In this document: one piece after another, positions 11,251 through 35,536 of the stretch | Layout of the letters: the number at the start of each line of letters is the position of its first letter | Position numbering within the stretch: position 1 is the stretch's first letter | Virus record (IMG/VR): IMGVR_UViG_3300049582_000032 | Coordinates: 1 to 64,000 of that record | Source: a virus | Direction: 5' to 3' (one strand) | Length of the DNA: 64,000 nucleotides | Notes under the pieces: generated by a model | What the model was told of the DNA's origin: nothing | Seen by the model: the letters and a program-made list of their open reading frames with translations, nothing else | The model's database searches: none | Program-made: the position numbers and the translations under genes

Positions 11251-12060
11251 CTAGTAACCAATGCTAGATATTCCAGGTCTGTACCTTTGCCTCTTGTCAG
11301 TTGGCGACGGTTTAGTAATAGCATGGGTTTGAAACTCATGTATCAAGTACCGAGTGCAATCCATAAGATGATCGTATTCCTTAACGATCTTGCCATCTTC
11401 ATTCCTCCTGTACCACGTTATTTCCTCTCTCCAGTTCTGTAACGTGTTGAATACTCTTATTCGTCCTTCCGCAAACATCTCCTGGATACGATAGATTCCG
11501 CTTTCGACTGCATTCTTTGCCGGAACTAGATTCAATCCAAGTTCTGTGTACTGAGTGAACAGCCTTTGACCGTCCGTTGGGCTTCTGTTTCTGGAAGACG
11601 GATCGACAACACCAGGAATCCACGCACCTCTCGCCTTGATCGCTGCCGCATGAACGGATGGAAGTTCGTTTGCGGAGTAGTGCTCAGAATAGAGGTAAAC
11701 AATGCTCTCTTCTCTGTCCCAAGCGAGCCATAGGGCTGCTGTCCTTCTGATGCCGACATCAAGTGCGTACAATCTTGGCCAGAAAACGGGAATTTCAAAG
11801 GGTTTTATCAGGACATCCTTGACGTTGATCGGGTAGACGACGCCGCTCCCGATGGCCGGGATACCATGCTCACGGGCAGAGATCAGGTGAGGAGGCGTAG
11901 CGCGCCGCATTTCCTCCTTGGCTGTTTCGTCAAGGTGCGGAACGTCGTTCCACGTGATGGAAACCGTGGCTCTGGATTGGTTCAGTACCTTGATATCACG
12001 CAGGAGATCATGGTGCGTCAGGCCCGAAGCAGGATCGCTCCACTCTGGAGGCGTTGGCAT
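11251..12060 (-). CDS. Terminase large subunit, C-terminal half (lid plus RNase H-like nuclease), P22 gp2-like
   Basis: ITWNDVPHL, AREHGIP.IGSG.VY, LDVG..RTAALW.AWD, DPS, DHLMDCTRY; no Walker motifs. Confidence 0.9.
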   Translation of the reverse strand: MPTPPEWSDPASGLTHHDLLRDIKVLNQSRATVSITWNDVPHLDETAKEEMRRATPPHLISAREHGIPAIGSGVVYPINVKDVLIKPFEIPVFWPRLYALDVGIRRTAALWLAWDREESIVYLYSEHYSANELPSVHAAAIKARGAWIPGVVDPSSRNRSPTDGQRLFTQYTELGLNLVPAKNAVESGIYRIQEMFAEGRIRVFNTLQNWREEITWYRRNEDGKIVKEYDHLMDCTRYLIHEFQTHAITKPSPTDKRQRYRPGISSIGY

Positions 12061-12070
12061 GAAAGAACAC

Positions 12071-12274
12071 TTAAGCCGGTTCTGCCCCTCCGCTGTCCTT
12101 CCTGAAAATGCGCTTATCCGTGCTCATGCTGACAGGCTCTTGCGCTGGAGGCTGTGGCTGTTCAGGTTGAGGGTCTGGAATAGGAGGCATAGGCGGGATC
12201 GCGTATTGGCGGTTTTTCCTCGCAAGCCTCGCTTCTGCAAGCCATGCCCTGTAGTCTTCGTCATACTGTCTCAT
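12071..12274 (-). CDS. Small Pro/Gln-rich hypothetical protein
   Basis: ATG 12274 after AAAGGAGGG. Confidence 0.55.
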   Translation of the reverse strand: MRQYDEDYRAWLAEARLARKNRQYAIPPMPPIPDPQPEQPQPPAQEPVSMSTDKRIFRKDSGGAEPA

Positions 12275-12275
12275 G

Positions 12276-12304
12276 AAAAACCCTCCTTTGCTGGAAAGGA
12301 GGGC
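12276..12304 (-). terminator. Intrinsic terminator after nrdJ that also contains the next gene's SD
   Basis: Minus strand CCCTCCTTT-CCAGC-AAAGGAGGG-TTTTT. Confidence 0.75.
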
Positions 12305-12332
12305 TATTCTACACCTGATCCACGCTGTTCGT

Positions 12333-14078
12333 CTATGAGCAGGTTTTCTCACCAGTGGCCGGATCGTACATGCAAGCGGCCCCGTCTTGGCCGTTCGTAT
12401 CGAGAGAATTGAGAATACCCTTGCGGTAGCCTGCCGCCCGAAACGTTGTGCAACCCTTTGCTTTACTCTTATAGGCTCTCATATAGATGTCGCTAAACTC
12501 TTCCTCTGTAACCTCATCACCGATATTGCAGGTCTTTGAAACAGCTTGGTCAGTCCAATACTGAGCACGTGCCAGAACATCGACATGCTGGGTGGCCGTC
12601 ACCTCATCGGCGCACGTTCCAACGACACCGAACGCCATGAACGCATAGTTGAGAAGTTCCACCTCATCCTTGACGCCATTTCCGCGTGTGATAATGCGCT
12701 TCTGCCGGATGGAGAATGGAGGCTCTATTCCAGATGAAACATTGTCTCCAAAGAGAGAGATCGTTCCCGTTGGCGCTATGGAGTTGCATGTTCCGTTCCG
12801 GATGCCGTGTTTATAGATACCTTCCTGTAGATGCTCCGGAAGCTTCTTGATGTTCTCTCCCATTAGGAACTTGTCTCTGTCGAACAGAGGGAACGCACCC
12901 TTTCTGGAGGCGAGTTCAATAGAGGCCGCATAGCATTCGTTGCGAAGAGTCTCAAGAATCCTGTCTTGAAGATAAAGATATTCATCTGTTCCGTACTTCT
13001 CTCCCATGGCATGGATAGCGTCAGCAATTCCTGTGACACCGACGCCAACGCGCCGTTTGCTCTTTTGCTCGGCTTCCTGTGCGGGCGTGGGATAGCGGGT
13101 CTTGTCGATCACGTTATCCATCGCGGCAAAGAATGGTGCGATTGTTTTCTTGTAACCGTCCCAATCGAACTCCCACTTTGTTCCACCCCATCGAACGAGC
13201 TTGGCGATATTGATGCTTCCAAGAAGACATGCTCCATTTGCCGGCAGTGGAACTTCCCCGCATGGGTTTGTTCCAAGGATTTCTTCTACATACCATAAAT
13301 TGTTGAATTTATTGATTGTGTCTATGAACTGTACCCCAGGTTCCGCGTACTCCCAATTATTCTTCATGATCTTGTTCCACAGATCGCGCGCCCGGACTGT
13401 CTTGCGCCACTCTCCGTTGAAATGAAGATCGAACGGAAGGTCATTCTCGACGGCGAACATGAACTCATCGGTGCAGAGAACGGAAATGTTGAAATTCGTG
13501 AGCTTGTCGGAGTTGCGCTTGCAGTCTATAAACGCTTCGATGTCGGGATGATGACAGATCATTGTAGCCATCATTGCGCCTCTGCGATGACCTGATGACC
13601 GGATGGTGCGGCAACCTGTGTCATATATCTCCATGAAGCTGATCGGCCCGCTGGACGTTGAGCCAACTCCTTTGATTGGATCTCCTTCTGGACGAAGGTT
13701 GCTGAAGTTAAACCCGATCCCGCCTCCCTGCTGCATGGTGATCATGGCGTCATGGAAAACACTCAAGATGCCGTCATGCCCTGCAAGCGAGTCCAATATC
13801 ATTGGGGCATGGAAGCAGTTCTTATAAGTAACGCTCTTGCCTGTCCCTGATGCCGCCCATATACGCCCAGCCGGAACATTTATCTGTCTTTGGAGGCCAT
13901 CGAAGAGAGCGTCCCGGTGTGCTTCATCATCAGCCAGATCACAGGCGAGTCTCCAGCAGGCTTCAGTAAATGTCTCGTGCTCGTGTGCTGCGTATTTGTC
14001 CCTGAAGATCTGAATAGCTGCTTCGGTTTTGGGGCCATAGGAAGCAACAGTTGAGAAATCTTGGAGCATTCCGTCCAT
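12333..14078 (-). CDS. nrdJ: Class II (adenosylcobalamin-dependent) ribonucleotide reductase
   Basis: PAGRI, NCF, GGGIGFNFSNLRP, RRGAMM, TNPCGE, IAPTGTIS, SKT.N, C-terminal Cys pair; no nrdB seen in window. Confidence 0.9.
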   Translation of the reverse strand: MDGMLQDFSTVASYGPKTEAAIQIFRDKYAAHEHETFTEACWRLACDLADDEAHRDALFDGLQRQINVPAGRIWAASGTGKSVTYKNCFHAPMILDSLAGHDGILSVFHDAMITMQQGGGIGFNFSNLRPEGDPIKGVGSTSSGPISFMEIYDTGCRTIRSSGHRRGAMMATMICHHPDIEAFIDCKRNSDKLTNFNISVLCTDEFMFAVENDLPFDLHFNGEWRKTVRARDLWNKIMKNNWEYAEPGVQFIDTINKFNNLWYVEEILGTNPCGEVPLPANGACLLGSINIAKLVRWGGTKWEFDWDGYKKTIAPFFAAMDNVIDKTRYPTPAQEAEQKSKRRVGVGVTGIADAIHAMGEKYGTDEYLYLQDRILETLRNECYAASIELASRKGAFPLFDRDKFLMGENIKKLPEHLQEGIYKHGIRNGTCNSIAPTGTISLFGDNVSSGIEPPFSIRQKRIITRGNGVKDEVELLNYAFMAFGVVGTCADEVTATQHVDVLARAQYWTDQAVSKTCNIGDEVTEEEFSDIYMRAYKSKAKGCTTFRAAGYRKGILNSLDTNGQDGAACMYDPATGEKTCS

Positions 14079-14345
14079 AACGTTACTTATCCCTTACTCA
14101 GAGTTGGACACAGTTCAACCGATCAGAGGAACGTGCCTCTGTTTTTTTGACTTCTGACGCGGTGTGTTATTCTGCCGAAAACCCCAAAGGTATACCAGAT
14201 CTTGTGTCCTGGCTCAAGGCGAAAAAGTTGCATTCCAGCGAATAAACGACTTGACTTCGCTGATAGGCTTTATCTTGACCCCGACTTCCCGCATGGGTAT
14301 CATCACCATTGCTGTGTAGAATGAGAAGTCAGGCCGAAGGTCCTC

Positions 14346-14531
14346 ATGCCTCCTTTCCCAGGCCAGAAAATGTCAACGAACATGGCCTCCTCCATGGTTA
14401 TTGGTGGCGAATCCGTTCCCGCCGATCTGGAGGGGGAACTCATGTTCTATGGCATCACGAGCGATGACGGACTCGTTCTCAGATACGGCCCCGATCCAAA
14501 TGATGAAATGTGGTATGGCGCACCCCCGTAA
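14346..14531 (+). CDS. Small tail-module protein
   Basis: ATG after GAAGG; its stop directly abuts the ATG of the large fibre gene. Confidence 0.55.
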   Translation: MPPFPGQKMSTNMASSMVIGGESVPADLEGELMFYGITSDDGLVLRYGPDPNDEMWYGAPP

Positions 14532-17500
14532 ATGGCCATCAATGTAAAGACAACAGAAGTACCAGACCTGCTGATCGCCCCAGGGAGAACAGCAGGCCAA
14601 CTCAACACCATCGTCAACTCAGCCACAACCAGCATCTCCACCCTCCAGGATGACGTTGCCGCCGTTGAGGGGGCGCTTACCGCAACGCAAGGCGATGTCA
14701 CTACCCTTCAAGACGAACTTTCCGACGCCCAAGGGGACATCACCACTCTTCAGGGAACAGCACACGCCGCCGTTACACTTGCAGGAGAGTCATATCTCTC
14801 CCTGTCAGGCCAGCAGATCACGGCGAATGAGGTCAATCTCTCAACCCAAGTCACCGGGAACCTGCCGGTAACGAACTTGAATGGCGGAACCAATGCGTCC
14901 GCAAGCACGTACCTTCGTGGCGATGGAGTGTGGGCCACACCCGAAACAGGGACAACATACACAGACGAGAGTGCACAGGACGCCGTTGGCGGGGTGCTTG
15001 CCTCTTCCACAAGCATTACTCTCACCTACAACGATGCAACACCGTCCATCACGGCTACAGCAAACTTCGGATCAACCGCTGGCACGATAGCGGAAGGAAA
15101 TCACACCCACGCTGGCGTATATCAGCCATTGGATGCGGAACTGACAGCGCTTGCAGGTCTGACATCGGCGGAAAACACGCTTGGATACTTCACAGGATCG
15201 GGTACGGCCACCACAACCCAACTGACCGCATTCGGGCGTTCGCTCATCGATGACGCGGATGCCGCAACCGCACAAGACACCCTTGGGCTTGGCACGATTG
15301 CAACGCAAGCCGCAAACAATGTCACCATCACGGGCGGCGCTATATCCGGGATAACCGATCTCGCAATCACCGATGGCGGAACCGGATCATCCACTGCCGC
15401 TGGGGCCTTCAGCAATCTCAAGCAGGACGCAACAGAAGGCGCGACGGGTGTTGTCGAACTCGCAACAAGCACGGAAGTTGCCACAGGCACCGACACCACA
15501 AGGGCAGTCACTCCTGCCGGGATCGCGGCAAATTATCAACCGCTGGCGGCAAAGCTGACATCTCTTACTGGTCTTTCCGCATCCGCAGACAGAATAGCCT
15601 ATTTTAACGGTACTGATACCCTTGCGCTTACCAACTTGACATCGTGGGCAAGAACCCTCCTTGACGATGGAAGCGCGACAACAGCAAGGGGAACGCTAAA
15701 CCTCAATACGATGTCTACACAAGCCGCCAATAACGTTACGATCACTGGCGGCTCCATCACTGCAATTACTGATTTGGCAATCGAGGATGGAGGCACTGGA
15801 GCCAGCACAGCTTCCGGCGCTTTCGACAATATCAAGCAACCCGCTTCCGAAACTTCAACAGGTGTCGTTGAACTTGCCACAACCGCTGAAGCCCAGGCAG
15901 GCACGGACACCACGAGAGCAGTCACACCGGCTGGACTTGCAGCAGCCAATACTCCGGTTACGCTTGCTGGCAGCCTCGATTATCTCACGTTGAACGGGCA
16001 GCAGATCACCAGAAACCCGGTCGATCTCGCTACCGACGTTACCGGCAACCTTCCCATAACCAACCTCGCGTCAGGAACGAACGCCGACAACACCACATAC
16101 CTTCGCGGCGACGGACAGTGGGCTGTTCCATCCGGCACAGGAGGCTACACTGATGAAGCGGCCCAGGACGCCGTGGGCGGAATTGTCTCTTCGTCGGATT
16201 CCATCACACTCACTTATACGGATACAACACCGTCCATTGTCGCAACGGCCATTTTCGGAACGACAGCCGGTACTGTATGCGAGGGAGATGATTCCAGACT
16301 TCATGACCCTGTAACCCTTGCCGGTACACCTGACTACCTCACCATTGACGCACTGACGCAAGTTGTAACACGCGCCCTGATCAATCTTGCAAGCCATGTT
16401 ACCGGAACGCTTCCCATCGGCAGCGGCGGTACGGGAGAGGCAACAGCGGCAGCGGCTTTCGCGGCATTGAAGCAGGTTGCATCCGAGACAGCAACAGGCG
16501 TTGTTGAACTCGCAACGGTTGCTGAAGCGGTAGCGGGAACGGATACAGAACGCGCTGTCACCCCGGCTGGACTAGCGGCAGCAATCCCGGACCCCTTTGC
16601 AGACCCGGAACTTGGGGCCATCGCGGGTCTTACGTCAGCAGCAAATGCGCTTCCATACTTTACCGGATCAGGAACAGCGGATGTCACCACGCTTTCCGCT
16701 TTTGGAAGAACGCTCATTGACGATGCCGACAACACGGCAGCCAGGACGACTCTTGGCTTGGGGTCAATGGCAACGCAGGTTTCCAGCAATGTTGCCATAA
16801 CCGGGGGTACGATCACCGGAATTCCAGCCAGCGATACCACAACCGGCGTTATAGAACTTGCCACGAATGCTGAGGTTGCAGCCGGAACAGATACCGCACG
16901 TGCAGTTACTCCGGCAGGGGCAGCATCGTTTTACCAGCCCCTTGACGCAGAACTAACCGCTCTTGCCGGCCTTACGTCAGCGGCAGACAAGGTTCCTTAT
17001 TTCACTGGTTCCGGTACAGCAGGTGTATCCAACCTGACATCGTTTGCCAGAACGCTTCTCGACGACGACAATAATACGACAGCAAGAGGAACGCTTGGGC
17101 TTGGCACGATTGCGACACAAGCAGCGGATAACGTTACGATTACGGGTGGTTCAGTATCCGGCATTACGGATATCGCAATTGGTGATGGAGGCACGGGAGC
17201 GTCAACGGCTCTTGCAGGATTTGACAACCTGAAACAAGCCGCAACAGATGCTTACACAGGAGTCGTAGAACTTGCGACCAATGCCGAAGTCGCAACAGGG
17301 ACAGATACAACCCGCGCTGTCACTCCGGCAGGCGCTGCTTCCAGGTATCAGCCGCTTGAAACAAAGCTTACCGCTTTTTCGGGTCTTTCACCCGTTGCCG
17401 ATAGGATGCCTTATTTCACAGGCACTGGAACCATGGATATATGCGATCTCACACCATGGGCCAGAACGCTTCTCAACGACGGAAGTGCAATTACCGCTAG

Positions 17501-19403
17501 GGGAACGCTCAATCTCGGAACGATTTCTACACATGCCGCAGATAACGTTGCTATTACCGGCGGCTCCATCACCGGCATTACAGATCTAGCGATATCCGAT
17601 GGAGGTACCGGAGCCGGAACAGCGGCAGATGCCTTTACAAACCTGAAACAACCTGCATCTGAAACGGCAACAGGTGTTGTTGAATTAGCGACACTGGCGG
17701 AAGTCGCAACCGGCACAGACACTGCCCGTGCAGTTACTCCTGCTGGGGTGGCAAGCGTTCTTCATGCGCCCGTAACCTTAGCCGGAACACCGGACTACAT
17801 CACCATGACGGGGCAGCAGATCACCAGGAATGCGGTTGATCTTGCGGCGGACATAACAGGCAATCTTCCTATCGCGAACCTAAACGGTGGAACGGATGCT
17901 TCCGAAACAACCTACTGGCGCGGCGATGGAACGTGGGCTGCCCCATCAGGGACTGGTGGATATACGGATGAAGAAGCCCAGGACGCAGTTGGTACGATCC
18001 TTGCCGACTCCTCTTCCATCAACTTTACCTATACAGACGCAACGCCAGAAATAACGGCTGCCGCTATCTTTGGGACAACCGCTGGCACGGTTGCGGAGGG
18101 CAATCACAATCACGACGCAACTTATCAGCCACTTGAAGCAAAGCTCACCGCGTTTTCAGGGCTTTCCCCAATTGCTGACAGAATGCCATATTTTACCGGC
18201 ACCAACACCATGGATATATGCGATCTCACGCCGTGGGCCCGGACTCTTCTCAACGACGGAAGTGCTGCAACAGCGAGAGGAACGCTACTCCTCGGAACCA
18301 TAGCAACCCAGGCAGCGGATAACGTCTCCATCACAGGCGGTTCCGTCACTGGAGTCACAGATATCACCGTGGCCGATGGCGGAACAGGTGCTTCTACTGC
18401 TGCCGGCGGATTCGATAACCTGAAACAGGCCGCAACAGAGACCTACACAGGTGTCGTTGAACTCGCAACGAATGCAGAAGTTGCAACTGGCACGGATACG
18501 ACACGCGCTGTCACTCCTGCCGGTGTTGCATCAGTCCTGCACTCTGCTGTAACGCTCGCTGGGACACCAGACTACATCACGCTCAGCGGCCAGCAAATTA
18601 CGCGTGGGCTGATCGACCTTACGACCGATATTACCGGCAATCTTCCTGTCGGCCACCTTGGTTCCGGCACGAACGCGAGTTCAAGCACGTACTTGCGCGG
18701 GGATATGACGTGGCAGACGGTGACGGGCGGCCTTGCAGAGGCAACCAGCACGCAAGTCAGGACCGGGACTGCTGGAGTCGCGATCAGTCCAAGCGTAAGG
18801 AACGCTGCCAACGCTCCTGTTACTCTGACAGACGCGGCAACGGTTGCGATCGATATGAATGCCGGGCTTGTATTTCAGCTCACGCTTGGCGGCAACCGGA
18901 CAATGGGTCAGCCGACAAACCAGAAAGTTGGTCAAAGCGGTCAATTCGTCATTCTACAGGACGGAACAGGCGGGCGGACGCTCGCATGGCACGCGGATTT
19001 CAAGTTCAGCGGAGGCACTCCGGTCATTCCTCCAGCGGCAAATGCCTGGTGCGTTGTTGCTTATTATATCAGAGCAGCAAACGATATCGTTTGTGCCACG
19101 AGCGTGGATACAAGCAGGCTCCTGACTGTTACGGAGAGCGGTACGTCGCGAACGAACACATCAGCCGATGCCGGGAATTGGGTACGTTGGACATCAACAT
19201 CGGCTAAAACGTTCACCATTGCGAACAGCGTTGCGTCAGCCGGCGACGTATGGAGCGGAATCAATGCAGCGGCCTCTGGAACCCTGACCCTCGTAGCTGG
19301 CAGCGGCGTTACACTGACGGGCGCTCTGGCGTTTGCTTCCCTGAAATCCTACTCCATTCGCTTTGTCTCAGCATCTGCCGCTGATGTTGTTGGTGGTGCC
19401 TGA
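14532..19403 (+). CDS. Long modular tail fibre (1623 aa)
   Basis: N-terminal coiled coil; recurring YQPLDAELTALAGL...TGVVELAT.AEV.TGTDT.RAVTPAG and VTLAG.PDY...TGNLP...YLRGDG modules. Confidence 0.88.
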   Translation: MAINVKTTEVPDLLIAPGRTAGQLNTIVNSATTSISTLQDDVAAVEGALTATQGDVTTLQDELSDAQGDITTLQGTAHAAVTLAGESYLSLSGQQITANEVNLSTQVTGNLPVTNLNGGTNASASTYLRGDGVWATPETGTTYTDESAQDAVGGVLASSTSITLTYNDATPSITATANFGSTAGTIAEGNHTHAGVYQPLDAELTALAGLTSAENTLGYFTGSGTATTTQLTAFGRSLIDDADAATAQDTLGLGTIATQAANNVTITGGAISGITDLAITDGGTGSSTAAGAFSNLKQDATEGATGVVELATSTEVATGTDTTRAVTPAGIAANYQPLAAKLTSLTGLSASADRIAYFNGTDTLALTNLTSWARTLLDDGSATTARGTLNLNTMSTQAANNVTITGGSITAITDLAIEDGGTGASTASGAFDNIKQPASETSTGVVELATTAEAQAGTDTTRAVTPAGLAAANTPVTLAGSLDYLTLNGQQITRNPVDLATDVTGNLPITNLASGTNADNTTYLRGDGQWAVPSGTGGYTDEAAQDAVGGIVSSSDSITLTYTDTTPSIVATAIFGTTAGTVCEGDDSRLHDPVTLAGTPDYLTIDALTQVVTRALINLASHVTGTLPIGSGGTGEATAAAAFAALKQVASETATGVVELATVAEAVAGTDTERAVTPAGLAAAIPDPFADPELGAIAGLTSAANALPYFTGSGTADVTTLSAFGRTLIDDADNTAARTTLGLGSMATQVSSNVAITGGTITGIPASDTTTGVIELATNAEVAAGTDTARAVTPAGAASFYQPLDAELTALAGLTSAADKVPYFTGSGTAGVSNLTSFARTLLDDDNNTTARGTLGLGTIATQAADNVTITGGSVSGITDIAIGDGGTGASTALAGFDNLKQAATDAYTGVVELATNAEVATGTDTTRAVTPAGAASRYQPLETKLTAFSGLSPVADRMPYFTGTGTMDICDLTPWARTLLNDGSAITARGTLNLGTISTHAADNVAITGGSITGITDLAISDGGTGAGTAADAFTNLKQPASETATGVVELATLAEVATGTDTARAVTPAGVASVLHAPVTLAGTPDYITMTGQQITRNAVDLAADITGNLPIANLNGGTDASETTYWRGDGTWAAPSGTGGYTDEEAQDAVGTILADSSSINFTYTDATPEITAAAIFGTTAGTVAEGNHNHDATYQPLEAKLTAFSGLSPIADRMPYFTGTNTMDICDLTPWARTLLNDGSAATARGTLLLGTIATQAADNVSITGGSVTGVTDITVADGGTGASTAAGGFDNLKQAATETYTGVVELATNAEVATGTDTTRAVTPAGVASVLHSAVTLAGTPDYITLSGQQITRGLIDLTTDITGNLPVGHLGSGTNASSSTYLRGDMTWQTVTGGLAEATSTQVRTGTAGVAISPSVRNAANAPVTLTDAATVAIDMNAGLVFQLTLGGNRTMGQPTNQKVGQSGQFVILQDGTGGRTLAWHADFKFSGGTPVIPPAANAWCVVAYYIRAANDIVCATSVDTSRLLTVTESGTSRTNTSADAGNWVRWTSTSAKTFTIANSVASAGDVWSGINAAASGTLTLVAGSGVTLTGALAFASLKSYSIRFVSASAADVVGGA

Positions 19404-20423: not shown

Positions 20424-20957
20424 ATGAGGCCATTATCAGGAACATTCGGACAACAGGTTGCCGGCGCAACAGAATACTCTATATGGGGAAGCACGACAGT
20501 CGGGACAGAAAACGTTGATCCGCTGGAGCCAAATATTGTCATCGGGACAAAGTTCAAGACAAATACAAACGGGAATATAATAGCCTGTAGGTGGCAGAGG
20601 ATAAGCGGTCAGGCCCAGGCCACATCGTTCGCTTTGTATCAGGGGTCAACAAATATCTCAGGAACAAATACAATATCAGGTGGAACAGACTCAGGATGGC
20701 AGCGGCAGAACTTTTCATCCGCCCAGAGTGTTACGTCTGGAACAATATATATGATTTGCCTGCTGCATCCAGGATTACCAACGGCATATTACGTTACAGG
20801 TGCTTTTTTCGCTTCTGCTTACACGAATGGACCGCTGACAGCAGTAGCAACTTCTGAATCATCAAACGGTCTCTATGAATACTCACCAACCATGGTAGCC
20901 CCGACAAATAACTTTAATAATACGTGTTATTACATTGACGTTGTTTTTACATCCTAA
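20424..20957 (+). CDS. DUF4082-like domain protein
   Basis: IGTKF..., SGWQ..NFS, NGLY.Y, PTN.FN...YYIDVVF. Confidence 0.75.
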   Translation: MRPLSGTFGQQVAGATEYSIWGSTTVGTENVDPLEPNIVIGTKFKTNTNGNIIACRWQRISGQAQATSFALYQGSTNISGTNTISGGTDSGWQRQNFSSAQSVTSGTIYMICLLHPGLPTAYYVTGAFFASAYTNGPLTAVATSESSNGLYEYSPTMVAPTNNFNNTCYYIDVVFTS

Positions 20958-20983: not shown

Positions 20984-21331
20984 ATGGATAGAGAGCACGA
21001 CAAATCAAAACTCGCAGCGGCCATTCTTGCCTTTGACTTGATCCTAGATGACATGCTGGAGTGCCTGGATACAGGGAAGGAGTTCCACCCAGCCGCCCAC
21101 ATTCTCATGGAGGCTCTGACAGGGCAAATGAGTTTCGTTCCACATATCCCACCATTGAAGCAAGAGTACGTGCTCAACATGGCTGCCATCGGATCGCTCG
21201 TCAGGTTGATCACTCTGTCAATGGATGTAGGCGCACAGAACATCCGAAGCGTCATAGAGATGCAGAAAGAAAAGCTTGAAATGCTCAGAAAGATCGATTT
21301 CCGTAGAGCCCAGGAGCAATCGTTGCACTAG
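20984..21331 (+). CDS. Hypothetical protein
   Basis: AAAGGA SD, 115 aa. Confidence 0.6.
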   Translation: MDREHDKSKLAAAILAFDLILDDMLECLDTGKEFHPAAHILMEALTGQMSFVPHIPPLKQEYVLNMAAIGSLVRLITLSMDVGAQNIRSVIEMQKEKLEMLRKIDFRRAQEQSLH

Positions 21332-22935
21332 GCAACTTTCTTCCTGATTACGCCCTTTTTGAAGAGAAAACTCTTAAGATCGTTGTTGATTAGCTTCACG
21401 GTTGCGGCATCCGGCTTCTTCGATCGGATGTAATCAAGATATCCCCACACAACCTGAAATTCATTCGGTATCTTTTTATCACAAAACGCCTTCGTTCTCT
21501 GCTTCCAGTTCTCGTGTCCTTTTGATTTATGGTATCCGATGACCTGAGCATAGAGATCCATGGCCAGTTCCCTTGTCCATGTCACTTTGGCCATCTCGCG
21601 AGACGTTTCAGCCACCAACTGGACGGGTATTTCCTCCAGAACATGGATTCTTGGAGGCATCGCGGTCCCGCATTTCGGGCATTTTCGGGCAGAAACAGGA
21701 TATTCGGTGCCACAAACACACTTGTAAAGCGCTTCGGTAGCGACTGCGTCCTCTTCCTCCTTTGCTTTACGCAACCTCTTCAGCTTCTCGGTGGCGCTTT
21801 TCGGTGTTTCCTCCAGATCCCAATCCCAATCGCTATCCGGGTGCTTCAATTTCTCCACTGTTTTTGTGTAATCCAGGACTTTTACACACGTTTTGTCACC
21901 GGATGGCCGTCTTCCGCGTCCGATTGCCTGTAGATACGTGATCAGGTTCATGACCTGCTGCTTATTCGGCCTTGCCAAGGCTACGCACTCGATTTCAGGA
22001 ATGTCCACGCCCTCTACAGCAATGCCGAAGTTGCACAGAACCTTGATTTCGCCACTCGCAAGCCGTGCATAGATCCGGTCTCGCGGGGATACGCCATCTT
22101 CTCCTGGCTCGTCGGATATGTCAGAGTCGATATGCTCCGCTGGGATGCCCGCACGATTGAACTGCTCGCACAGATGGATTGAGTGGCCCACATTCTTGGC
22201 GAAAAAGACCGTCTTGAGGTCAAGGCAATGCTCCTGCCACTGCTCGACGACCCTCCCGATCAGCTTGGGCGTATCCGCCATATCGTCCGGAAGCACCAGA
22301 CCCCTGGAATTGACCACACTGGCCGGAAGCAGGATTCCCGCCTCGACCATCTCATTGATCGACGGACCCCTAACGAGCGCATCGTACTGGCTGCCAAGCC
22401 CATCTCCGTTTCCTTTGATGGGAGTTGCGGAATACCCAATGAAAACCGCCTTCGGGTAGACCGTTTTCAGCCAGTTGATATTGCCGATATGGCATTCATC
22501 CACATGCACAACGTCTGCGGGAGGAAGCGCAGCCTCCATCGGGTCCAGGCCGTATTGCAGGTCGAGTTCCTTGTGCGAATCGCTGTCGATCAGCCCCTTT
22601 GCCCTTTTGTACCGGAGCCACAGGGTCGCAGTACACGCAACCTGGACAGGAGAATTCCTGTCATACGGCATTCCGGCCATCATGTATGACGGGTTCAAGC
22701 CGTACCTGCTGAATGTATCGTACATCTGCTTGGTGATTCGCCGCCGTGGCGTGATGACAAGCACATGCCTTCCCTTCGAGACAGTCCCTTTTGCGAGACG
22801 TGCGCTGATGTGCGTCTTCCCAGCCCCTGTTGGAGCCTGCACGCAGATATTCCGGATACTCCGCTTTCCGAAATCATAGATCTGCTGGATGATATTGGTC
22901 TGAAACCGCTCCCTGTTTGCGTTGATCAGGTCCAT
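21328..22935 (-). CDS. Superfamily 2 (DExH) helicase with C-terminal zinc ribbon
   Basis: APTGAGKT, DECH, SAT, EGVDIP, QAIGRGRR, CVC...CPKCG; start at MDLIN via TGATG overlap. Confidence 0.9.
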   Translation of the reverse strand: MDLINANRERFQTNIIQQIYDFGKRSIRNICVQAPTGAGKTHISARLAKGTVSKGRHVLVITPRRRITKQMYDTFSRYGLNPSYMMAGMPYDRNSPVQVACTATLWLRYKRAKGLIDSDSHKELDLQYGLDPMEAALPPADVVHVDECHIGNINWLKTVYPKAVFIGYSATPIKGNGDGLGSQYDALVRGPSINEMVEAGILLPASVVNSRGLVLPDDMADTPKLIGRVVEQWQEHCLDLKTVFFAKNVGHSIHLCEQFNRAGIPAEHIDSDISDEPGEDGVSPRDRIYARLASGEIKVLCNFGIAVEGVDIPEIECVALARPNKQQVMNLITYLQAIGRGRRPSGDKTCVKVLDYTKTVEKLKHPDSDWDWDLEETPKSATEKLKRLRKAKEEEDAVATEALYKCVCGTEYPVSARKCPKCGTAMPPRIHVLEEIPVQLVAETSREMAKVTWTRELAMDLYAQVIGYHKSKGHENWKQRTKAFCDKKIPNEFQVVWGYLDYIRSKKPDAATVKLINNDLKSFLFKKGVIRKKVA

Positions 22936-23399
22936 CAGGGGACCTCGACAACCTGAACCGGGGGAATGGCGATGTATTGCACTGGACTTTTCGATAGCTC
23001 GCGTTTTATGACCTCTCTGACAATCCTCCATTCCAGCCCCCCAAGGCCGCATCCTACTGCTGGCAGCGCAACGGTTTCGATGCCTCGCGCATTGCACTCG
23101 TGGTTCATATCTTCAAGGGCAGGACGTATATCCACGAGCCTCGATTTCTGTCTCCAGTGATACTTGGTCGGGAATAGGATGATCTCTGGTGGAGATTCCA
23201 CACCGGATTTCACCACCCTGACGCGGCCAAGCATCATCTCGCCACGGTTACACAGCGCTTTGTATGACCAGAGCATATCAGGAAATCGTTCCTTGAACTC
23301 CAGCTCCAATCCATTCCCCATTACGCCTACACAATTGACGGGATTGACAAGGGCTTGGCAATCCATGGAGAAGATATTGCCATTGCGGACGGTGAGCAT
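22935..23399 (-). CDS. Macrodomain ADP-ribose glycohydrolase, DarG-like
   Basis: VNPVNCVGVMG.G, FPTK.HW, ALPAVGCGLGGL.W. Confidence 0.88.
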   Translation of the reverse strand: MLTVRNGNIFSMDCQALVNPVNCVGVMGNGLELEFKERFPDMLWSYKALCNRGEMMLGRVRVVKSGVESPPEIILFPTKYHWRQKSRLVDIRPALEDMNHECNARGIETVALPAVGCGLGGLEWRIVREVIKRELSKSPVQYIAIPPVQVVEVP

Positions 23400-24212: not shown

Positions 24213-24968
24213 ATGGTCAAACAAGGCGAAACAATAGCTGTGTGGTTTTCTTGCGGTGCAGCTAGCGCCGTAGCGGCAAAAAAGACTATTGAGAAGTATG
24301 GGAAAATCGCGAAGATCAGGATCGTTAATAATCCTATAAAAGAAGAGCACAGCGACAATATGAGGTTTTTGCGCGATGTAGAAAGGTGGCTAGGAATCCC
24401 AATTGAATTTGCCATCAATACTAGATATCTATCTGGATCTTGTGTAGATGTTTGGAACGATAGGAAATTTATGTCTGGGCCAGCAGGAGCACCGTGTACA
24501 CTTGAATTAAAGAAAAAGGCTAGACTACATTGGGAAATAAATAACAATGTTGATTGGCACGTATTAGGTTTCACATTGGATGAAAAGAAGCGTAGTGACA
24601 ACTTTATTCGCAGAGAAAGAAGCAATCTGATTCCAGTCCTTATTGATGAGTGTATAACAAAAACACAATGTTTCGCAATAATTAAAGCCGCTGGTATCGA
24701 ATTGCCAGAAATTTATAAACTAGGATATCCGAATGCAAACTGTATAGGTTGTGTGAAGGCAACCTCACCAACATATTGGAATCATGTTCGTAAAATGCAC
24801 CAAGACGTTTTTAAACAGCGAGCAACACAATCACGGGAGATTGGCGCAAAACTTGTAAGATATAAAGGTAAACGTATTTTCCTAGATGAACTAGACCCAA
24901 GAGCAAGGGGAAAGTCCATGAAAAATATGGACTTTGAATGTGGACTTTTTTGTGAGGAGCGCGGATAA
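24213..24968 (+). CDS. PAPS-reductase-like (adenine nucleotide alpha hydrolase) phage protein
   Basis: VWFSCGAASAVA, APCT.ELKK, GF..DE..R, YKLGYPNANCIGCVK; AT-rich. Confidence 0.8.
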   Translation: MVKQGETIAVWFSCGAASAVAAKKTIEKYGKIAKIRIVNNPIKEEHSDNMRFLRDVERWLGIPIEFAINTRYLSGSCVDVWNDRKFMSGPAGAPCTLELKKKARLHWEINNNVDWHVLGFTLDEKKRSDNFIRRERSNLIPVLIDECITKTQCFAIIKAAGIELPEIYKLGYPNANCIGCVKATSPTYWNHVRKMHQDVFKQRATQSREIGAKLVRYKGKRIFLDELDPRARGKSMKNMDFECGLFCEERG

Positions 24969-27285: not shown

Positions 27286-28569
27286 GTGAACTACCCCTGC
27301 CTAAAGGCAGAGGCTTCTAGCTTCTCAGGCAATTGCGATTCACTTGGCTTGCGCCCCGCGGATCGTCTGACATTGCCTCCACTAGCAGTAGCGGGCGCTC
27401 CACCCGCCAAAATCCTTAACCCTTCATCACGTATATTGATGGCCGCGTTAACATCCCTATCATGGTGCGTTCCACAATGGCCACACTGCCAAGCGCGAAC
27501 CTTAAGCGGGATCTTATCATGAACGCTGCCACATACGTTACAAGTCTTTGTGCTCGGGAACCACCTATCGCATTTAACGAAAGCCTTTCCTGCACGCTCC
27601 GACTTGTATTCCAGGAAACGTGTGAGCATTCCCCACCCTACATCCGAAACAGCTTTCGCAAGATTGTGATTCTTCAGCACGCCTTTAACGTTTAGATCTT
27701 CGACGCATATGACTTGGTTTTCGTCAATCAGGCGTCGTGACAGTTTATGTAGATAGTCCTTGCGAGCACATGCGACCCTCTCATACGCCCTCGCAACAAG
27801 CCGCCGTGCCTTATTTCTTCCAGCGGACCCTTTCTTTCTGCGAGATAGCTTGCGCTGCTTCCTCTTAAGATTCCTTTCAGCTTTCCGAATATGTCTCGGA
27901 TTATCGAATTTAGACCCGTCGCTTGTGACGGCCAAATGAGTCAACCCAACGTCAATGCCAATCGCCTTGCCATCGCTGGAAATTGCAGGCAGTTCAACGC
28001 CATCATCCGTCAAGATAGAAGCATGGTATCGCCCGGCAGGATTCATGCTAACGGTAACGGTCTTAATGCGCCCGAATAGCTCTCTATGGACAACGCACCG
28101 AACCCACCCGACTTTTGGCAAATAGATTCGGCTGCCGTTAACCTTAACCCTCTGCGGGTATTGTATAGACTGCCTGCCATGTTTCGATTTGAAACGAGGA
28201 TAGCGCCCACGCTTCTGAAAGAAGTTCTCATATGCGCGAGAAAGGTTCTGTAATGATTGCTGCAACGCTTGTGAGTCTGCATCGCGCAACCATTTAAATT
28301 CTGCCTTCAACTTTGGCAGACGGATTGCCATTGCATGGTAGTTCAAGCCCTTGCCGGTTTCTCTATACAATGCGCCACTTGTCGCGAGGGCTTCATTCCA
28401 GACCCATCTAACGCAACCGAATTGCATCGTCAGAGCCTTAGTCTGATCTATTGTCGGATACATACGAATTTTGGTTGCCGTAAGCATTGTTTAGGTATAC
28501 AATGCTCTCGTCTAAATGTCAAGGGCCTTATATCCCCTGCCTAAAGACAAGGGTTTTACGGCCCATTAG
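27286..28569 (-). mobile_element. IS200/IS605-family tnpB-only (IS1341-like) element
   Basis: Related subterminal hairpins CCCCTGCCTAAAG(G/A)CA.(A/G)GG at both ends; right end TCAC; TTAT target motif outside left end; no target duplication. Confidence 0.88.
27291..28487 (-). CDS. tnpB: RNA-guided endonuclease TnpB
   Basis: HTH_OrfB N-terminus; RuvC GIDVG, VEDL, DRDVNAA.NI; CxxC zinc ribbon. Confidence 0.95.
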   Translation of the reverse strand: MLTATKIRMYPTIDQTKALTMQFGCVRWVWNEALATSGALYRETGKGLNYHAMAIRLPKLKAEFKWLRDADSQALQQSLQNLSRAYENFFQKRGRYPRFKSKHGRQSIQYPQRVKVNGSRIYLPKVGWVRCVVHRELFGRIKTVTVSMNPAGRYHASILTDDGVELPAISSDGKAIGIDVGLTHLAVTSDGSKFDNPRHIRKAERNLKRKQRKLSRRKKGSAGRNKARRLVARAYERVACARKDYLHKLSRRLIDENQVICVEDLNVKGVLKNHNLAKAVSDVGWGMLTRFLEYKSERAGKAFVKCDRWFPSTKTCNVCGSVHDKIPLKVRAWQCGHCGTHHDRDVNAAINIRDEGLRILAGGAPATASGGNVRRSAGRKPSESQLPEKLEASAFRQG

Positions 28570-29417: not shown

Positions 29418-29433
29418 TTGTCACTCCGGCCGC

Positions 29434-31005: not shown

Positions 31006-31070
31006 CACATCCTCCAGCTTTTTGTCTTGCGCGCTAGCAGAAGTCCGCTAGGACGCTGTTGATATCCGGC

Positions 31071-31247: not shown

Positions 31248-31296
31248 GATTTTCTCCAGCGGTTTGGGCGACCCGGTTCAGAGCCGCCCGTTGTCC

Positions 31297-31527: not shown

Positions 31528-31685
31528 TTCACTGTCTCCAGTTTCCTGGCCATGCTTGCGAACGTCGCGGGTCGTTTCCCTGGCATTTCCAGCACTTCGG
31601 CGATGCGTTTTTCTCGTGCTTCCCTTCCGTCTTTCAGCAGAGTTTCCGAGATCGCAAAAATTTCCTTCATTGAAACGTGACTCAT
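31524..31685 (-). CDS. Small early protein (53 aa, not in track)
   Basis: MSHVSMKEIFAISETLL..., GCTGGAGAA RBS, promoter at 31746. Confidence 0.6.
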   Translation of the reverse strand: MSHVSMKEIFAISETLLKDGREAREKRIAEVLEMPGKRPATFASMARKLETVK

Positions 31686-31902
31686 GATTTTCTCCAGCTT
31701 TTGTGTTCCTCTTGTGCTTTCAGCCTACGCCCCTACGCACCCTCTGTCAACTCTTATTCTCTCTAACCCCCAAAAAAGCCCACCATCGCTCCGATCACGG
31801 CCAGCCCGGTCGCTAACACTCTGTAACTCCACGATTTTTTCCGAACCCTAGGAAAATGCATTCCCAAGTTGTATTCATGCGCAACCATTGGTATGTCCTT
31901 CA

Positions 31903-32178
31903 TCACCCGTAGCAATGCCTGAACACAACGCTTCCATCGCCGTCTCCTGTCAGGTATCCGCGAACACGGCATCCCTTGATTGAGCATACCGCCCCAATGC
32001 TGAAGAACGTGTCCGGTTCCGCGGATGTGACATAGACATTTGCCCGCATATCACCTGCCAAGCTTTCAAGTCTACAGTTCCTCACTTCTGACAGGGAAGG
32101 CCCGCCCATCCAGTCCGTGTAGCCCACGCGTGCTCCGTCCAACTGATCCTCAAAGAAGTCTGTACGGAATTTCTTCAT
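31903..32178 (-). CDS. Small early protein
   Basis: MKKFRTDF..., GCTGGAGG RBS. Confidence 0.65.
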   Translation of the reverse strand: MKKFRTDFFEDQLDGARVGYTDWMGGPSLSEVRNCRLESLAGDMRANVYVTSAEPDTFFSIGAVCSIKGCRVRGYLTGDGDGSVVFRHCYG

Positions 32179-32236
32179 GGCGACACCTCCAGCCAGTCGT
32201 TGGACATCTGCCGCTGTGGCGTTGGCTCGTACATCT

Positions 32237-32464
32237 TCAATCCTCCAGCTTATTCCCAAGGCCGCGCGCTTCCGCAAACTCCTCGATGGATTGCTCCTCA
32301 AGGATTTGCTCAAGCTCATGCGTGCCGTTCATGTCATCTTCGCGTTCTATTGCATACAGAGCCTGAAGAATATCAAACCACAACTCCGCTGCATCTTCCT
32401 TGTTGCTCGTTATAGAAAGCGCGAAATCCGATGCCTCCCGTAATGCGGCAGTAAGGTCAATCAT
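32237..32464 (-). CDS. Small acidic early protein
   Basis: Overlap-coupled; GAGGAG RBS. Confidence 0.55.
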   Translation of the reverse strand: MIDLTAALREASDFALSITSNKEDAAELWFDILQALYAIEREDDMNGTHELEQILEEQSIEEFAEARGLGNKLED

Positions 32465-32706
32465 CGGGTGCGCTCCTCGTGATCAAGCATTAAGGACTCG
32501 TCCCATCCCTGATCACTCTCGCGCTCCTGCTTTCCGTTCAGGCAACGCCCCGACCATTCGCAGAACTGTAACTTTGCATCAGGAAGAGGGTGGACGTTCT
32601 CAACACCCTTCAGGTTTTCCAGCTTAAGAAGGTTGAAATAGGTTTCCACAAAGCGAAACCCTATTCCGTTTTTATCGCCACCCGCTACCTTCAGAACCTT
32701 TGTCAT
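32461..32706 (-). CDS. Small early protein
   Basis: GCTGGAGG RBS; promoter at 32769. Confidence 0.6.
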   Translation of the reverse strand: MTKVLKVAGGDKNGIGFRFVETYFNLLKLENLKGVENVHPLPDAKLQFCEWSGRCLNGKQERESDQGWDESLMLDHEERTR

Positions 32707-32787
32707 TTCCTGCCTCCAGCAACAAGAAATTATTAACTGTGTAGAGTGTACGCCCCCAGCTATGAGAAGTCAACTCTTTTATGCTGG

Positions 32788-33417
32788 TTACGCTCTTTCT
32801 CCGTTCTCGTGGAATGTGTATTCGTTCGCAATGATACCCTCGTCTACTACCTCATTCGACATATGGTATTCGTATTCATCCCGCAAACTACGTTCTAGCC
32901 AATGGGCGAAATCGTACAGGCACTCTTGGAGGGCTTCTTCCGCGCCTTCGGATAAATCCTGATAGGCGGGGCTATCGCGCTCGACACTGAAAAGCATATT
33001 GTTCCAATTATTCAGTTCGATTCTAGCGGTTAGCTGGTAGAAGTTCTTACGCTGGATAGCTTGAAGCTTACTGGCGATATCGTGCAACTCTTCGTCTTGG
33101 GGTGCATACTCCTTGACTGCCTTGACGGAGTTTTTTGCATACGCATAATCACCTTCAAAGCCTGTCGAGTACCTGCCGTTCAATCCATCCCAATAGACGG
33201 ACGGCTCTTTCCTTGTGCCACCACCCATAAGGCGGACTGTCTTTTGCTTGATATCAAGGCCAAGCTTCTCGCAGATCGTAGCGAAGCCCTCGACAACCGA
33301 CTCCGACCAGTACCAATCATCGAAATTCCATGAGCGATACCAGTCGCGGGCGCGTTCCTTGGCCGACTCATCAAGCTCGTCGAACGTGTAGACGGTTACT
33401 TCCCTGACTTGCGGCAT
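32788..33417 (-). CDS. Acidic/aromatic mobile-element protein (family often annotated as antitoxin of a TA stability system)
   Basis: TVYTFDELD..AKERARDWY...EYEY..S.E.VDE.I.ANEYTF..NG. Confidence 0.7.
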   Translation of the reverse strand: MPQVREVTVYTFDELDESAKERARDWYRSWNFDDWYWSESVVEGFATICEKLGLDIKQKTVRLMGGGTRKEPSVYWDGLNGRYSTGFEGDYAYAKNSVKAVKEYAPQDEELHDIASKLQAIQRKNFYQLTARIELNNWNNMLFSVERDSPAYQDLSEGAEEALQECLYDFAHWLERSLRDEYEYHMSNEVVDEGIIANEYTFHENGERA

Positions 33418-33553
33418 GTCTTGGTTTCCTCTTGTCTTGTGTTCTGTATCCATGATGATAAGAGCGGGTTCCGGTGCCGTCAACACTTTTTTATGCTTGA
33501 ACTGAGAAAAGTTCCATGGCATACTTCAGGAAGATTGAACGAGAGGAGACGAG

Positions 33554-33811
33554 ATGGACTACCCCACCAAATACCCCTACAAGGTCGAAAAGCCCGATAC
33601 AAGGAGGGCCGGAAAACTGGCTGGCAAGAAGCTTCTCTTCGGAGAGTATAGCAGGTTCGCGGTTGCCCCGGTTCATTCCAGGTTTGAGGGTTCTACACCA
33701 TGGTTTGTGTGGGATGCGGCTCTGATCGACGAGCAAGGGCTGGCTGAAACCATCGTCATCAAGGACTCCTTCGAGGAGGCGATGAACACGCTGAAGAGGC
33801 TGGCTCTGTAG
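33554..33811 (+). CDS. Hypothetical protein
   Basis: GAGGAG RBS. Confidence 0.6.
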   Translation: MDYPTKYPYKVEKPDTRRAGKLAGKKLLFGEYSRFAVAPVHSRFEGSTPWFVWDAALIDEQGLAETIVIKDSFEEAMNTLKRLAL

Positions 33812-33847
33812 GGAGACAAGGGGCCAGCAGCGCCCCCACCCCCCCCT

Positions 33848-33889
33848 GCCGTAATTGGATCAACTTGGGGCCGTAATTGGATCAACTTG
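33848..33889. repeat. Tandem 20-bp direct repeat GCCGTAATTGGATCAACTTG x2
   Basis: 33848-33867 and 33870-33889; 14-bp core recurs at 36700-36713. Confidence 0.9.
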
Positions 33890-34772
33890 CGCTGTAAAAA
33901 GCAAAATCCTCCAGTTCCAGGATATCCTCGATTTCCTCACGCTCCCTCTTCGGAAGGTCGCCCAACATCCGCATACCTTCATCCCTGCCTGAGCCACCGG
34001 AACAGATCTTCTTCAAGACTCTCATTGCGGATTTGGAGAACGTCACAGACTCCTTTACGTGCTCTACCCACGCCCCGTAAACCAATGGCACCCACCCCCT
34101 CACCATGTCCTCAATGACACAGGCATAGGCCCGGATCTCGGACTGAGCGTGGGGGTCAGTGCGCAGCTTCAGGAAATGCAGCAAGTTATGAAGGTCGATC
34201 TTCCATCGGAACTCCGTGTACGTGGATAGCGGCAAATGCTCCCTGGCTTGCTCCGGGGCTATACCCTCATCAAGCATGGCGTTGTAGAGAAGGAAGGCAC
34301 GCTCATTATCCTCACGGACTTTTCTTATGAAATCGCCGCTGCCATCAGCAATACCACCACCCCTCCCCTGCTTGTTGTTCTCGGCCTTGACGTAAAAGGA
34401 GTCTGGAAGGTGAAATTCATTGCCAAGCTCCACATACCGCCCGCTCTGTTCGCTCGCCGTGGCCGTGCGATGGCGCAACCACTGCCTGAGAACAAATATC
34501 GGGGCTTTCACATGGAAGGCGATCTCTCCGTATTCTATCGGGCTAGAATGGCGGTGCTTCACAAGATAGTTGATCAATCCGCCAGGATTTGCGGAAGTCT
34601 CCTTGCCATAGCTCACACGCGCAGCCGCAACGATGTCGCTGTCACTCCCCATGTAATCAACACATCTGATCCACCCCTTATCAAGAACAGGGAACTTCCA
34701 TCCAAGTATCTCATCAAGGTATGGTGAACTCTCGCGGGCGGTCGCTGTTGACTTGTCTATCTGTCTCATCAA
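33882..34772 (-). CDS. thyX: Flavin-dependent thymidylate synthase
   Basis: AARVSY, RHSSP.E, RQWLRHRTA..SEQSGRY, LR.DPHAQ.EIR. Confidence 0.95.
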   Translation of the reverse strand: MMRQIDKSTATARESSPYLDEILGWKFPVLDKGWIRCVDYMGSDSDIVAAARVSYGKETSANPGGLINYLVKHRHSSPIEYGEIAFHVKAPIFVLRQWLRHRTATASEQSGRYVELGNEFHLPDSFYVKAENNKQGRGGGIADGSGDFIRKVREDNERAFLLYNAMLDEGIAPEQAREHLPLSTYTEFRWKIDLHNLLHFLKLRTDPHAQSEIRAYACVIEDMVRGWVPLVYGAWVEHVKESVTFSKSAMRVLKKICSGGSGRDEGMRMLGDLPKREREEIEDILELEDFAFYSAS

Positions 34773-35536
34773 TCATTTCCTCCGGGAATAAACAGTCTTG
34801 ATATCTCCGATAACCCCTTGAGCGGTGTGAATGTCGTAAGAACAACAGCCTTGGGTTTTGTCATTGTCCTGATCAGGCATTCGTTGTATATCTCTACATC
34901 CCCCTCTTCATCCAGCAAAACAAAATCGCGCTCAGTCCCTTCAAACGACAACCTCCCCTGCTGGTAACTTTTGACACCTATCCTGCTGTAATGTCCCGAT
35001 ACATGACGGATACGAACGGTATCAACAAGTTCTGTAACTCCCGCTTTCCATGACGGCGGATTATGAATGAGCTTGGCAGGGATGATCCCGTTCCCTAGCA
35101 AGCCCTTCTTTCCATCAATGATGGCGATATCACCAAACAGCTTCCTTTGCAGAATGTCCCGCGTGGTTTCGTTCGTCTGGCCAACCACCCACCCATCGAC
35201 AGGTCCAGGAAAGCGAAGCCCAGGCCACCAGTCCGGATAGATTCCGGTAGTGAAACACGCCACGGCAAACCCACCGGCCAACGTCTTCCCAACACGGTTT
35301 GCAGCCATGATGTTGCTTTCCCGCATGAAGGAAGTCATGTAGAAGGCGGCTAAAGCCTTGCGGTAATTCCTCCTCGCATAGATCTTCTCTCCGCGCTTGA
35401 AAACAACGGTGTCAGGTCCCCTCCATACCGTATCCTCGTCCGGGAACATGGAGTAGAAGGAGCGACCCGCCATGCGCCGGTCAAGCTCCCCCATAACCTC
35501 AAGGAGTTCTCGTCCTGTTTCAGGATCTATCTGCAA
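34769..35536 (-). CDS. Terminase large subunit, N-terminal ATPase half, P22 gp2-like
   Basis: Walker A MAANRVGKT, YPDWWPG.RF, TTRDILQ.KL, KSYQQGR, Walker B FVLLDEE, coupling motif TFTP; stops 14 codons later. Confidence 0.92.
   Translation of the reverse strand: MQIDPETGRELLEVMGELDRRMAGRSFYSMFPDEDTVWRGPDTVVFKRGEKIYARRNYRKALAAFYMTSFMRESNIMAANRVGKTLAGGFAVACFTTGIYPDWWPGLRFPGPVDGWVVGQTNETTRDILQRKLFGDIAIIDGKKGLLGNGIIPAKLIHNPPSWKAGVTELVDTVRIRHVSGHYSRIGVKSYQQGRLSFEGTERDFVLLDEEGDVEIYNECLIRTMTKPKAVVLTTFTPLKGLSEISRLFIPGGND

Follow-up and report, generated by a model that had tools for sequence, protein, structure and literature searches.

A large terminase encoded as two complementary open reading frames 22.7 kb apart in a metagenome-derived virus record

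The large terminase (TerL) described here is encoded in the first 64 kb (64,000 nucleotides, referred to below as the window) of IMG/VR virus record IMGVR_UViG_3300049582_000032, a linear record of 101,660 bp whose completeness was judged to be about 90%. It is present as two separate, collinear open reading frames (ORFs) on the minus strand, 22.7 kb apart, the one carrying the ATPase core (piece A) lying upstream of the one carrying the nuclease (piece N) (Table 1). ATPase and nuclease are thus not found on one polypeptide, each ORF having its own start and its own stop. Piece A ends in TFTPLKGLSEISRLFIPGGND, followed by a TGA stop, and terminates 17 residues past the TFTP motif; a GGAGGA lies within its last codons, and the ATG of the following gene, thyX, overlaps the stop by 1 base. 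Piece N begins MPTPPEW shortly after the stop of a small upstream ORF. An initial annotation, made from the DNA letters and their translations, had placed the two halves at these positions, with the same thyX overlap, GGAGG and MPTPPEW start, and renewed reading of the sequence agreed with it on each of these points.

Table 1. Positions of the two TerL pieces and of neighbouring features in the window.
Feature	Position	Strand	Evidence and remarks
Major head protein	5585..6583	-	phrog_1357, E 4e-61
Portal protein	7899..10160	-	phrog_332, phrog_1216; 37% identical to the portal after TerL in L012; downstream of piece N (canonical terminase-portal order)
TerL piece N	11251..12060	-	269 aa, ATG start; last ATPase strand and lid (1-68), RNase H-like nuclease (69-252), as predicted
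Small Pro-rich ORF	12071..12274	-	67 aa from the ATG at 12274; strong AAAGGAGGG site; stop 10 nt before piece N start
Terminator-like hairpin	12281..12299	-	after the RNR gene; 3' arm is the Shine-Dalgarno AAAGGAGGG of the small ORF
Ribonucleotide reductase (RNR)	12333..14078	-	Pfam Ribonuc_red_lgC, E 1e-107; first large gene of the interval
Tail-fibre protein	14532..19403	+	1623 aa; 17 PHROG families, mostly tail fibre; best tail-fibre match E 1.9e-36; inside the interval
Superfamily 2 (SF2) helicase	21328..23097	-	Pfam ResIII, DEAD, Helicase_C; inside the interval
Phosphoadenosine phosphosulfate (PAPS)-reductase-like protein	24213-24968	+	phrog_424, E 8e-42; in the interval
IS605-type TnpB (OrfB)	27291..28487	-	Pfam OrfB_IS605 E 3e-29, Cas12f1-like_TNB, HTH_OrfB_IS605; inside the interval
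14-bp motif CCGTAATTGGATCA, copies 2 and 3 (33849, 33871)	33849..33884	+	at thyX stop
thyX	33882..34772	-	Pfam Thy1, E 5.5e-51; start overlaps piece A stop
TerL piece A, ATPase core	34769..35536	-	255 aa, TTG start; Walker A NRVGKT, Walker B and catalytic Glu LLDEE, C-motif TFTP
DNA polymerase III beta sliding clamp (dnaN)	35543..36667	-	phrog_947, E 3.5e-26; three beta-clamp Pfam domains, each at or below cut-off
14-bp motif CCGTAATTGGATCA, copy 1	36700..36713	+	spacer of promoter-like site upstream of dnaN
Candidate small terminase (TerS), not confirmed	36725..37300	-	191 aa; ESM Atlas features only
Endolysin	37316..38482	-	upstream of candidate TerS in transcription order

The two pieces were compared with Pfam and PHROG profiles and with intact TerLs. 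Piece A covers positions 1-145 of the 215 of Pfam Terminase_6N (E 3e-5, above cut-off) and positions 281-404 of phrog_2, and also matches phrog_31467, a PHROG of ~260-residue proteins labelled 'unknown function' (E 1e-53). Piece N covers positions 160-210 of Terminase_6N, positions 13-154 of the 155 of Terminase_6C (E 1e-7, above cut-off) and positions 421-596 of phrog_2. Both pieces align to adjacent stretches of the intact TerL of EBPR podovirus 1, with 7 codons between them; in this phage and in Chlorobiaceae phage CV-1-33, TerL is a single ORF of ~475 aa with the portal gene next to it. The halves had initially been described as complementary, with neither overlap nor gap, and all three comparisons bear this out, with the refinement that they abut in a variable loop and that the leader of piece N, which aligns to intact TerLs from residue 10, is ~20 residues longer than in most relatives. 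Judged by these alignments, pieces A and N together make up one P22 gp2-type TerL. Searches of the whole genome with Pfam TerL_ATPase, Terminase_3 and GpA_ATPase found no second terminase, and no intact TerL is present elsewhere in the 101,660-bp record.

For location of the cut on the TerL fold, AlphaFold models of both pieces were used, with predicted local distance difference test (pLDDT) scores of 93.6 for piece A and 84.3 for piece N. A phmmer search of piece A against PDB sequences gave no match, and its placement needed a fold search, in which the model matched the ATPase domains of P74-26, D6E, Sf6 and T4 with Z scores of 12-15. Residues 25-255 of the model align to residues 9-207 of the P74-26 TerL ATPase (Z 15.0, root mean square deviation (rmsd) 3.0, 167 aligned), and its end corresponds to residue 207 of P74-26 TerL, 189 of D6E, 164 of Sf6 gp2 and 306 of T4 gp17. 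Piece N matched the P22 gp2 nuclease (4DKW) by sequence (E 1.7e-21), and residues 69..252 of its model align to chain residues 289..482 of that structure (Z 25.4, rmsd 2.6, 182 aligned); against D6E, the alignment starts at chain residue 232. Since the nuclease match does not start before residue 69, the ~68 residues ahead of it in piece N would be the end of the ATPase domain, comprising the core strand VSITWNDVPHL and the lid. The models therefore put the cut within the ATPase domain, ahead of the last strand and the lid, in agreement with the initial proposal of a break within the ATPase/lid unit. In sequence, the cut lies in the variable loop between FTPLxG...F and the WxD(V/A)PHL strand, a segment that in intact relatives measures 27-49 residues and is without conserved sequence.

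Stand-alone counterparts of each piece were sought among 5.8 billion proteins, the search being restricted to near-query lengths and clusters being counted at E<=1e-10. This gave 1,098 A-type clusters, the best 120 of which were all 230-321 aa long with 47-99% identity, and 1,094 N-type clusters, where 118 of the best 120 measured 231-277 aa; several contig sizes in bp appear in both lists. The recurrence of the same cut in about 1,100 clusters per half argues that a two-protein TerL is real and widespread, and the uniqueness implied by the initial annotation was not upheld. Stand-alone proteins were up to 74% identical to the window pieces, as against at most 46% for any intact TerL found, and homologues 62-74% identical to the pieces keep the same lengths. 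In scans of IMG/VR, metagenomes and genome contigs, no relative exceeded 47% identity. Elsewhere, each piece has protein counterparts of unchanged length and at least 90% identity, on contigs of up to 21,218 bp for piece A and up to 28,697 bp for piece N, with no contig size in common between the two sets. Such near-identical pieces on other contigs count against an assembly artefact, and their separate contigs hint that the long separation is shared by these relatives.

Related contigs, where the initial annotation had proposed to look for the same split, did contain it. Across 126 distinct related loci from IMG/VR and metagenomes, 92 encode an intact TerL and at least 23 a split one, with all splits but one falling in the same loop. 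The gap between the halves is 16-65 nt where the ORFs are adjacent or overlapping, and further gaps measure 210, 526, 629, 776, 819, 954, 1,831, 2,120 and 4,410 nt, the last of these in a 58-kb genome that is complete and has terminal repeats. Record G001 (L168, 1439-15278) has its halves 12.3 kb apart, with the intervening genes all on the same strand. The 22.7 kb of the window is the widest spacing among the examples found in this analysis. On a quick maximum-likelihood tree, about 10 changes between split and intact labels were needed, at least two of them forced by supported branches, and the window grouped with three other split loci (Shimodaira-Hasegawa-like approximate likelihood ratio test (SH-aLRT) 97) on a long branch. 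When the genes separating the halves in G001, L012, L017 and L046 were scanned with PHROG and Pfam, hardly any could be annotated, and no common interval content was shown.

Two further observations were made on these loci. In G001, a 1469-aa protein of no known family lies directly before the nuclease piece, and a helix-turn-helix ORF (Sigma70_r4-like) directly after the ATPase piece. One locus counted as intact, L021, carries an in-frame stop in the same loop (…LDAAE*LFVTF…, about 10690-10700), which may mean one more split TerL, read-through at this site or an error in the sequence.

Catalytic residues of both pieces are kept throughout. N80, R81 and K84 of Walker A, D209, E210 and E211 of Walker B with the catalytic Glu, and F236-T237-P238 are invariant in 46 stand-alone homologues of piece A, as are the nuclease residues D101, D153 and D234 in 46 stand-alone homologues of piece N. 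N-type pieces have a common start, MPEI(S/T), the conservation of which argues for a genuine initiation site. The ratio of nonsynonymous to synonymous substitution rates (dN/dS) was 0.10-0.32 among split relatives, for pairs with unsaturated dS. Modelling of both halves together, also suggested initially, gave a predicted complex with an ipSAE interface score of 0.88, compared with 0.00 for the best of three controls; in a benchmark of this score, 58 of 80 solved complexes and 2 of 110 mismatched pairs came up to the mark, counts that are approximate given the author-made alignments. At least 89% of the contacts were common to the runs, with a partner pLDDT of at least 82, and the modelled interface joins residues 51-84 and 237-251 of piece A with residues 2-70 of piece N.

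In three of the split relatives (L006, L032 and L037), HNH endonuclease genes, either of the NUMOD4 + HNH_3 type or of the HNH type, lie between the two halves. This pattern is that of genes-in-pieces made by free-standing homing endonucleases. Genes 39 and 60 of T4, which encode topoisomerase, are a comparable genes-in-pieces case. Pfam and PHROG scans found no homing endonuclease gene adjoining either junction in the window. Farther along in the window, an HNH_3 endonuclease gene (58562..59428, plus strand) shares 33% identity across 104 residues with the endonuclease that interrupts TerL in L006; in L006 itself, a tRNA gene (L006:2908-2980) also lies between the TerL halves, beside the two HNH endonuclease genes found there.

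The surroundings of the two pieces differ. Piece A is part of a dnaN-terL(A)-thyX block, with dnaN ending 6 nt before its start, and piece N lies just upstream of the portal and capsid genes. Along the minus strand, the order is endolysin, candidate TerS, beta clamp, piece A, thyX, about 21 kb of other genes, the 67-aa ORF and piece N; beyond piece N follow one opposite-strand ORF, the portal gene, a probable scaffold gene and the major head protein gene. The 21-kb stretch holds genes without an assigned role together with TnpB, the PAPS-reductase-like protein, the SF2 helicase, an opposite-strand tail-fibre block and RNR, and the whole interval between the halves contains about 30 genes on both strands. 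No TnpA was seen alongside the TnpB of the interval. The PAPS-reductase-like protein may be a DNA-modification or an auxiliary metabolic gene. The 1623-aa tail-fibre gene is followed by one for a DUF4082 protein (20424-20957), both on the opposite strand and away from the main tail module. The small Pro-rich ORF before piece N had no Pfam or PHROG match. The hairpin upstream of it, a pattern match of a kind that is not found in the region above shuffled expectation, could couple termination and translation through the AAAGGAGGG it shares with the Shine-Dalgarno site.

Upstream of piece A, the candidate TerS was put forward on its nearest ESM Atlas clusters, which belong to DUF2280 (0.96, 187 shared features), with one Terminase_5 cluster at 0.90; it had no Pfam or PHROG match, and BLASTP against the EBPR podovirus TerS showed no similarity. 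A promoter-like TTGACA-18-TAGGAT lies on the minus strand at 36723..36694, and the first copy of the 14-bp motif is contained in its spacer. Only three exact copies of this motif exist in the 101,660-bp genome, and with one of them ahead of dnaN and two at the stop of thyX, the dnaN-terL(A)-thyX block is bracketed by the motif, which may be either a regulatory site or a scar of movement. The genome carries a full set of portal, capsid and tail genes. Outside the window, at 68.6-79 kb of the genome (L182:4627-14934), genes for a VirD4-like coupling protein, a VirB11-like ATPase and a TrbI/VirB10-like protein were observed; a record that combines type IV secretion genes with a complete virion module fits a phage-plasmid-like element.

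The initial annotation had proposed two separately expressed chains that assemble in trans, and this appears to be the best supported reading, judged by the separate starts and stops, the gene contexts, the opposite-strand blocks between the pieces, the searches that found no intron, intein or junction repeat, the conservation of both pieces and the complex model. What the sequences show is two ORFs of complementary content, both conserved and meeting at a recurrent break site. TerL is, we consider, probably encoded here as genes-in-pieces, assembled from two chains whose genes were later pulled apart by insertions and rearrangement. Piece A would supply the ATPase core, of Rossmann type, as far as the helix that follows the C-motif; the next beta-strand of this core would come from piece N, together with the lid subdomain, the linker and all of the nuclease domain. 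Piece N is predicted to dock with its first ~70 residues on piece A, beside the strand leading into Walker A and on the C-terminal helix of piece A; docking would restore one TerL protomer without a covalent link, and the rebuilt protomer would then work as usual with the portal encoded beside piece N. As to history, the split may have arisen at a site repeatedly struck by homing endonucleases, after which the halves would have become independent cistrons and insertions and module shuffling would have put 22.7 kb between them (RNR, the tail-fibre block, helicase, TnpB and thyX). Piece A would by now have become embedded in the dnaN-terL(A)-thyX block, with piece N having stayed at the head of the structural module.

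Several points weigh against this explanation. Structures of one-chain TerLs have been solved, and the score of the complex model may reflect a fold already present in them; the model speaks for likeness and not for binding, and assembly in trans is here inferred from the genes and the predicted complex. Piece N is without a well-placed Shine-Dalgarno sequence, the nearest GGAGGGG being ~26 nt upstream, and its translation would consequently depend on coupling to the small upstream ORF. Selection was measured on split relatives that are more distant than the close, 62-74% identical ones. With no endonuclease gene beside either half in the window, the proposed origin is drawn by analogy with the relatives. 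Finally, the record is linear and may be incomplete.

Five other explanations were weighed, and all are disfavoured. The two halves could be decaying remnants in an element that no longer packages by this enzyme or that uses a helper; the VirD4-, VirB11- and TrbI-like genes may offer it another transfer route, and the record is about 90% complete. Decay nonetheless seems improbable, in that every catalytic motif is kept in both pieces, homologues of 62-74% identity have the same lengths, split relatives show dN/dS of 0.1-0.3, the genome has its portal, capsid and tail module in full, and the same split occurs in the complete 58-kb phage genome with terminal repeats. The record being metagenome-derived, either the split or the distance might be an artefact of a chimeric or misjoined contig. 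At both breaks the gene ends are clean, with a stop, a start and neighbouring genes that overlap; proteins nearly identical to the pieces, and with unchanged ends, are found on further contigs measuring up to 21 and 28 kb, none of those sizes having both halves; and the break recurs across many independent assemblies, with another record holding its halves 12.3 kb apart; we regard misassembly as very unlikely.

Covalent restoration of a single chain could in principle take place in RNA, in protein or in DNA. A trans-splicing group I or group II intron would join the pieces in RNA, and group I introns do interrupt terL in other phages (PMC4246154, PMC12880540). The window gave no Rfam match at gathering score and none at E<=1 around either junction, nor was an intron found by Rfam in nine split relatives, where only a tRNA in the L006 gap was detected; moreover, the conserved thyX ORF directly follows piece A, and the 16-65 nt gaps of some relatives are too short for an intron, which leaves trans-splicing a slim chance. 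The absence of introns and repeats from the junctions, noted initially, was upheld by the negative Rfam result and by the finding that only chance 10-mers are common to them. Ligation as protein is known from metagenomic fractured genes, in which split inteins occur and the halves have an endonuclease gene between them (PMC2677866), and some TerLs contain inteins (PMC7156551). Here, the 17 residues after TFTP leave no room for an N-intein of ~100 aa, the leader of piece N is extein-like and lacks HN + C/S/T, and most N-type pieces begin only 5-10 residues before the conserved strand, making a split intein exceedingly improbable; as had been read initially, there is no Cys or Ser after the break and no HN ahead of the restart. 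To programmed excision of the 22.7-kb interval, which would restore one gene as the skin element does in sigK, we likewise give next to no credence. The pieces are collinear on one strand, as such a mechanism would have it, but the junction regions have only a few chance 10-mers in common, TnpB and no recombinase was found among the interval ORFs tested (small ORFs being only partly covered), the interval carries RNR, thyX, the helicase and the tail fibre, and the two-piece form also exists with 16-nt gaps.

Genes-in-pieces, which we prefer, might have a functional side. It is possible, if rather doubtful, that the separation is functional rather than the outcome of neutral drift, with the ATPase core expressed among early replication and nucleotide genes, in the dnaN-terL(A)-thyX block that the 14-bp motif brackets, and the lid-nuclease among late structural genes, so that the motor would form only when the two programmes overlap. 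On a broader version of this idea, which we offer just as tentatively, the terL split site would be a recombination hot spot that gathers fast-changing accessory and host-range genes, here the 1623-aa tail fibre.

To our knowledge, every large terminase with a solved structure or a studied biochemistry is a single chain whose ATPase, lid and nuclease communicate via covalent linkers. Full-text searches found intron- or intein-interrupted terL genes and no literature on an intron-less two-chain TerL. A natural, selected two-chain TerL, cut ahead of the last core strand and the lid and represented in over a thousand lineages, would be a ready-made system for studying the coupling of lid and nuclease to ATP hydrolysis, would allow one to ask whether the stoichiometry or timing of the parts is regulated, and would show how homing endonucleases reshape essential phage genes. 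In practical terms, annotation pipelines label such halves 'hypothetical' or 'domain-containing protein', and tools in which TerL serves as the marker of completeness or phylogeny will mis-score phages with a split TerL. To the series of distances, the window contributes the extreme.

When compared with the one-chain TerLs of the P22 gp2, Sf6 gp2 and T4 gp17 type, the protein encoded here has the same two catalytic modules and motifs, and piece N adjoins the portal gene; it differs in being two polypeptides encoded 22.7 kb apart in different gene blocks. Genes for terL that carry group I introns and endonuclease genes are known from Lelliottia phage phD2B, K1E and the Jug phages (PMC4246154, PMC12880540). 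As in these, at least two ORFs jointly give the full protein, but theirs are read as exons rejoined by RNA splicing, whereas here no intron was detected and ~30 genes lie between. The resemblance to the two exons of herpesvirus UL15, drawn initially, holds as an analogy and not as anything beyond that. Unlike the fractured genes (PMC2677866), neither piece of the window TerL has a split intein, and unlike skin/sigK, the ORFs and regions scanned contain no recombinase and no direct repeats at the junctions. A further parallel is the nrdA gene of Aeromonas phage Aeh1, which, as summarized where PMC5418858 cites Friedrich et al. 2007 (PMC1851037), is split by mobE. The window differs from it in that the junctions are without an endonuclease gene, the halves are not neighbours and the two-piece enzyme is known here from its genes; the relatives L006, L032 and L037 do carry an HNH endonuclease gene exactly between their halves, as in Aeh1. 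In both cases, an essential phage enzyme would be made as two independently translated ORFs that must reassemble, and the window TerL has the makings of genes-in-pieces, with one enzyme, two ORFs and a cut at a tolerated loop site.

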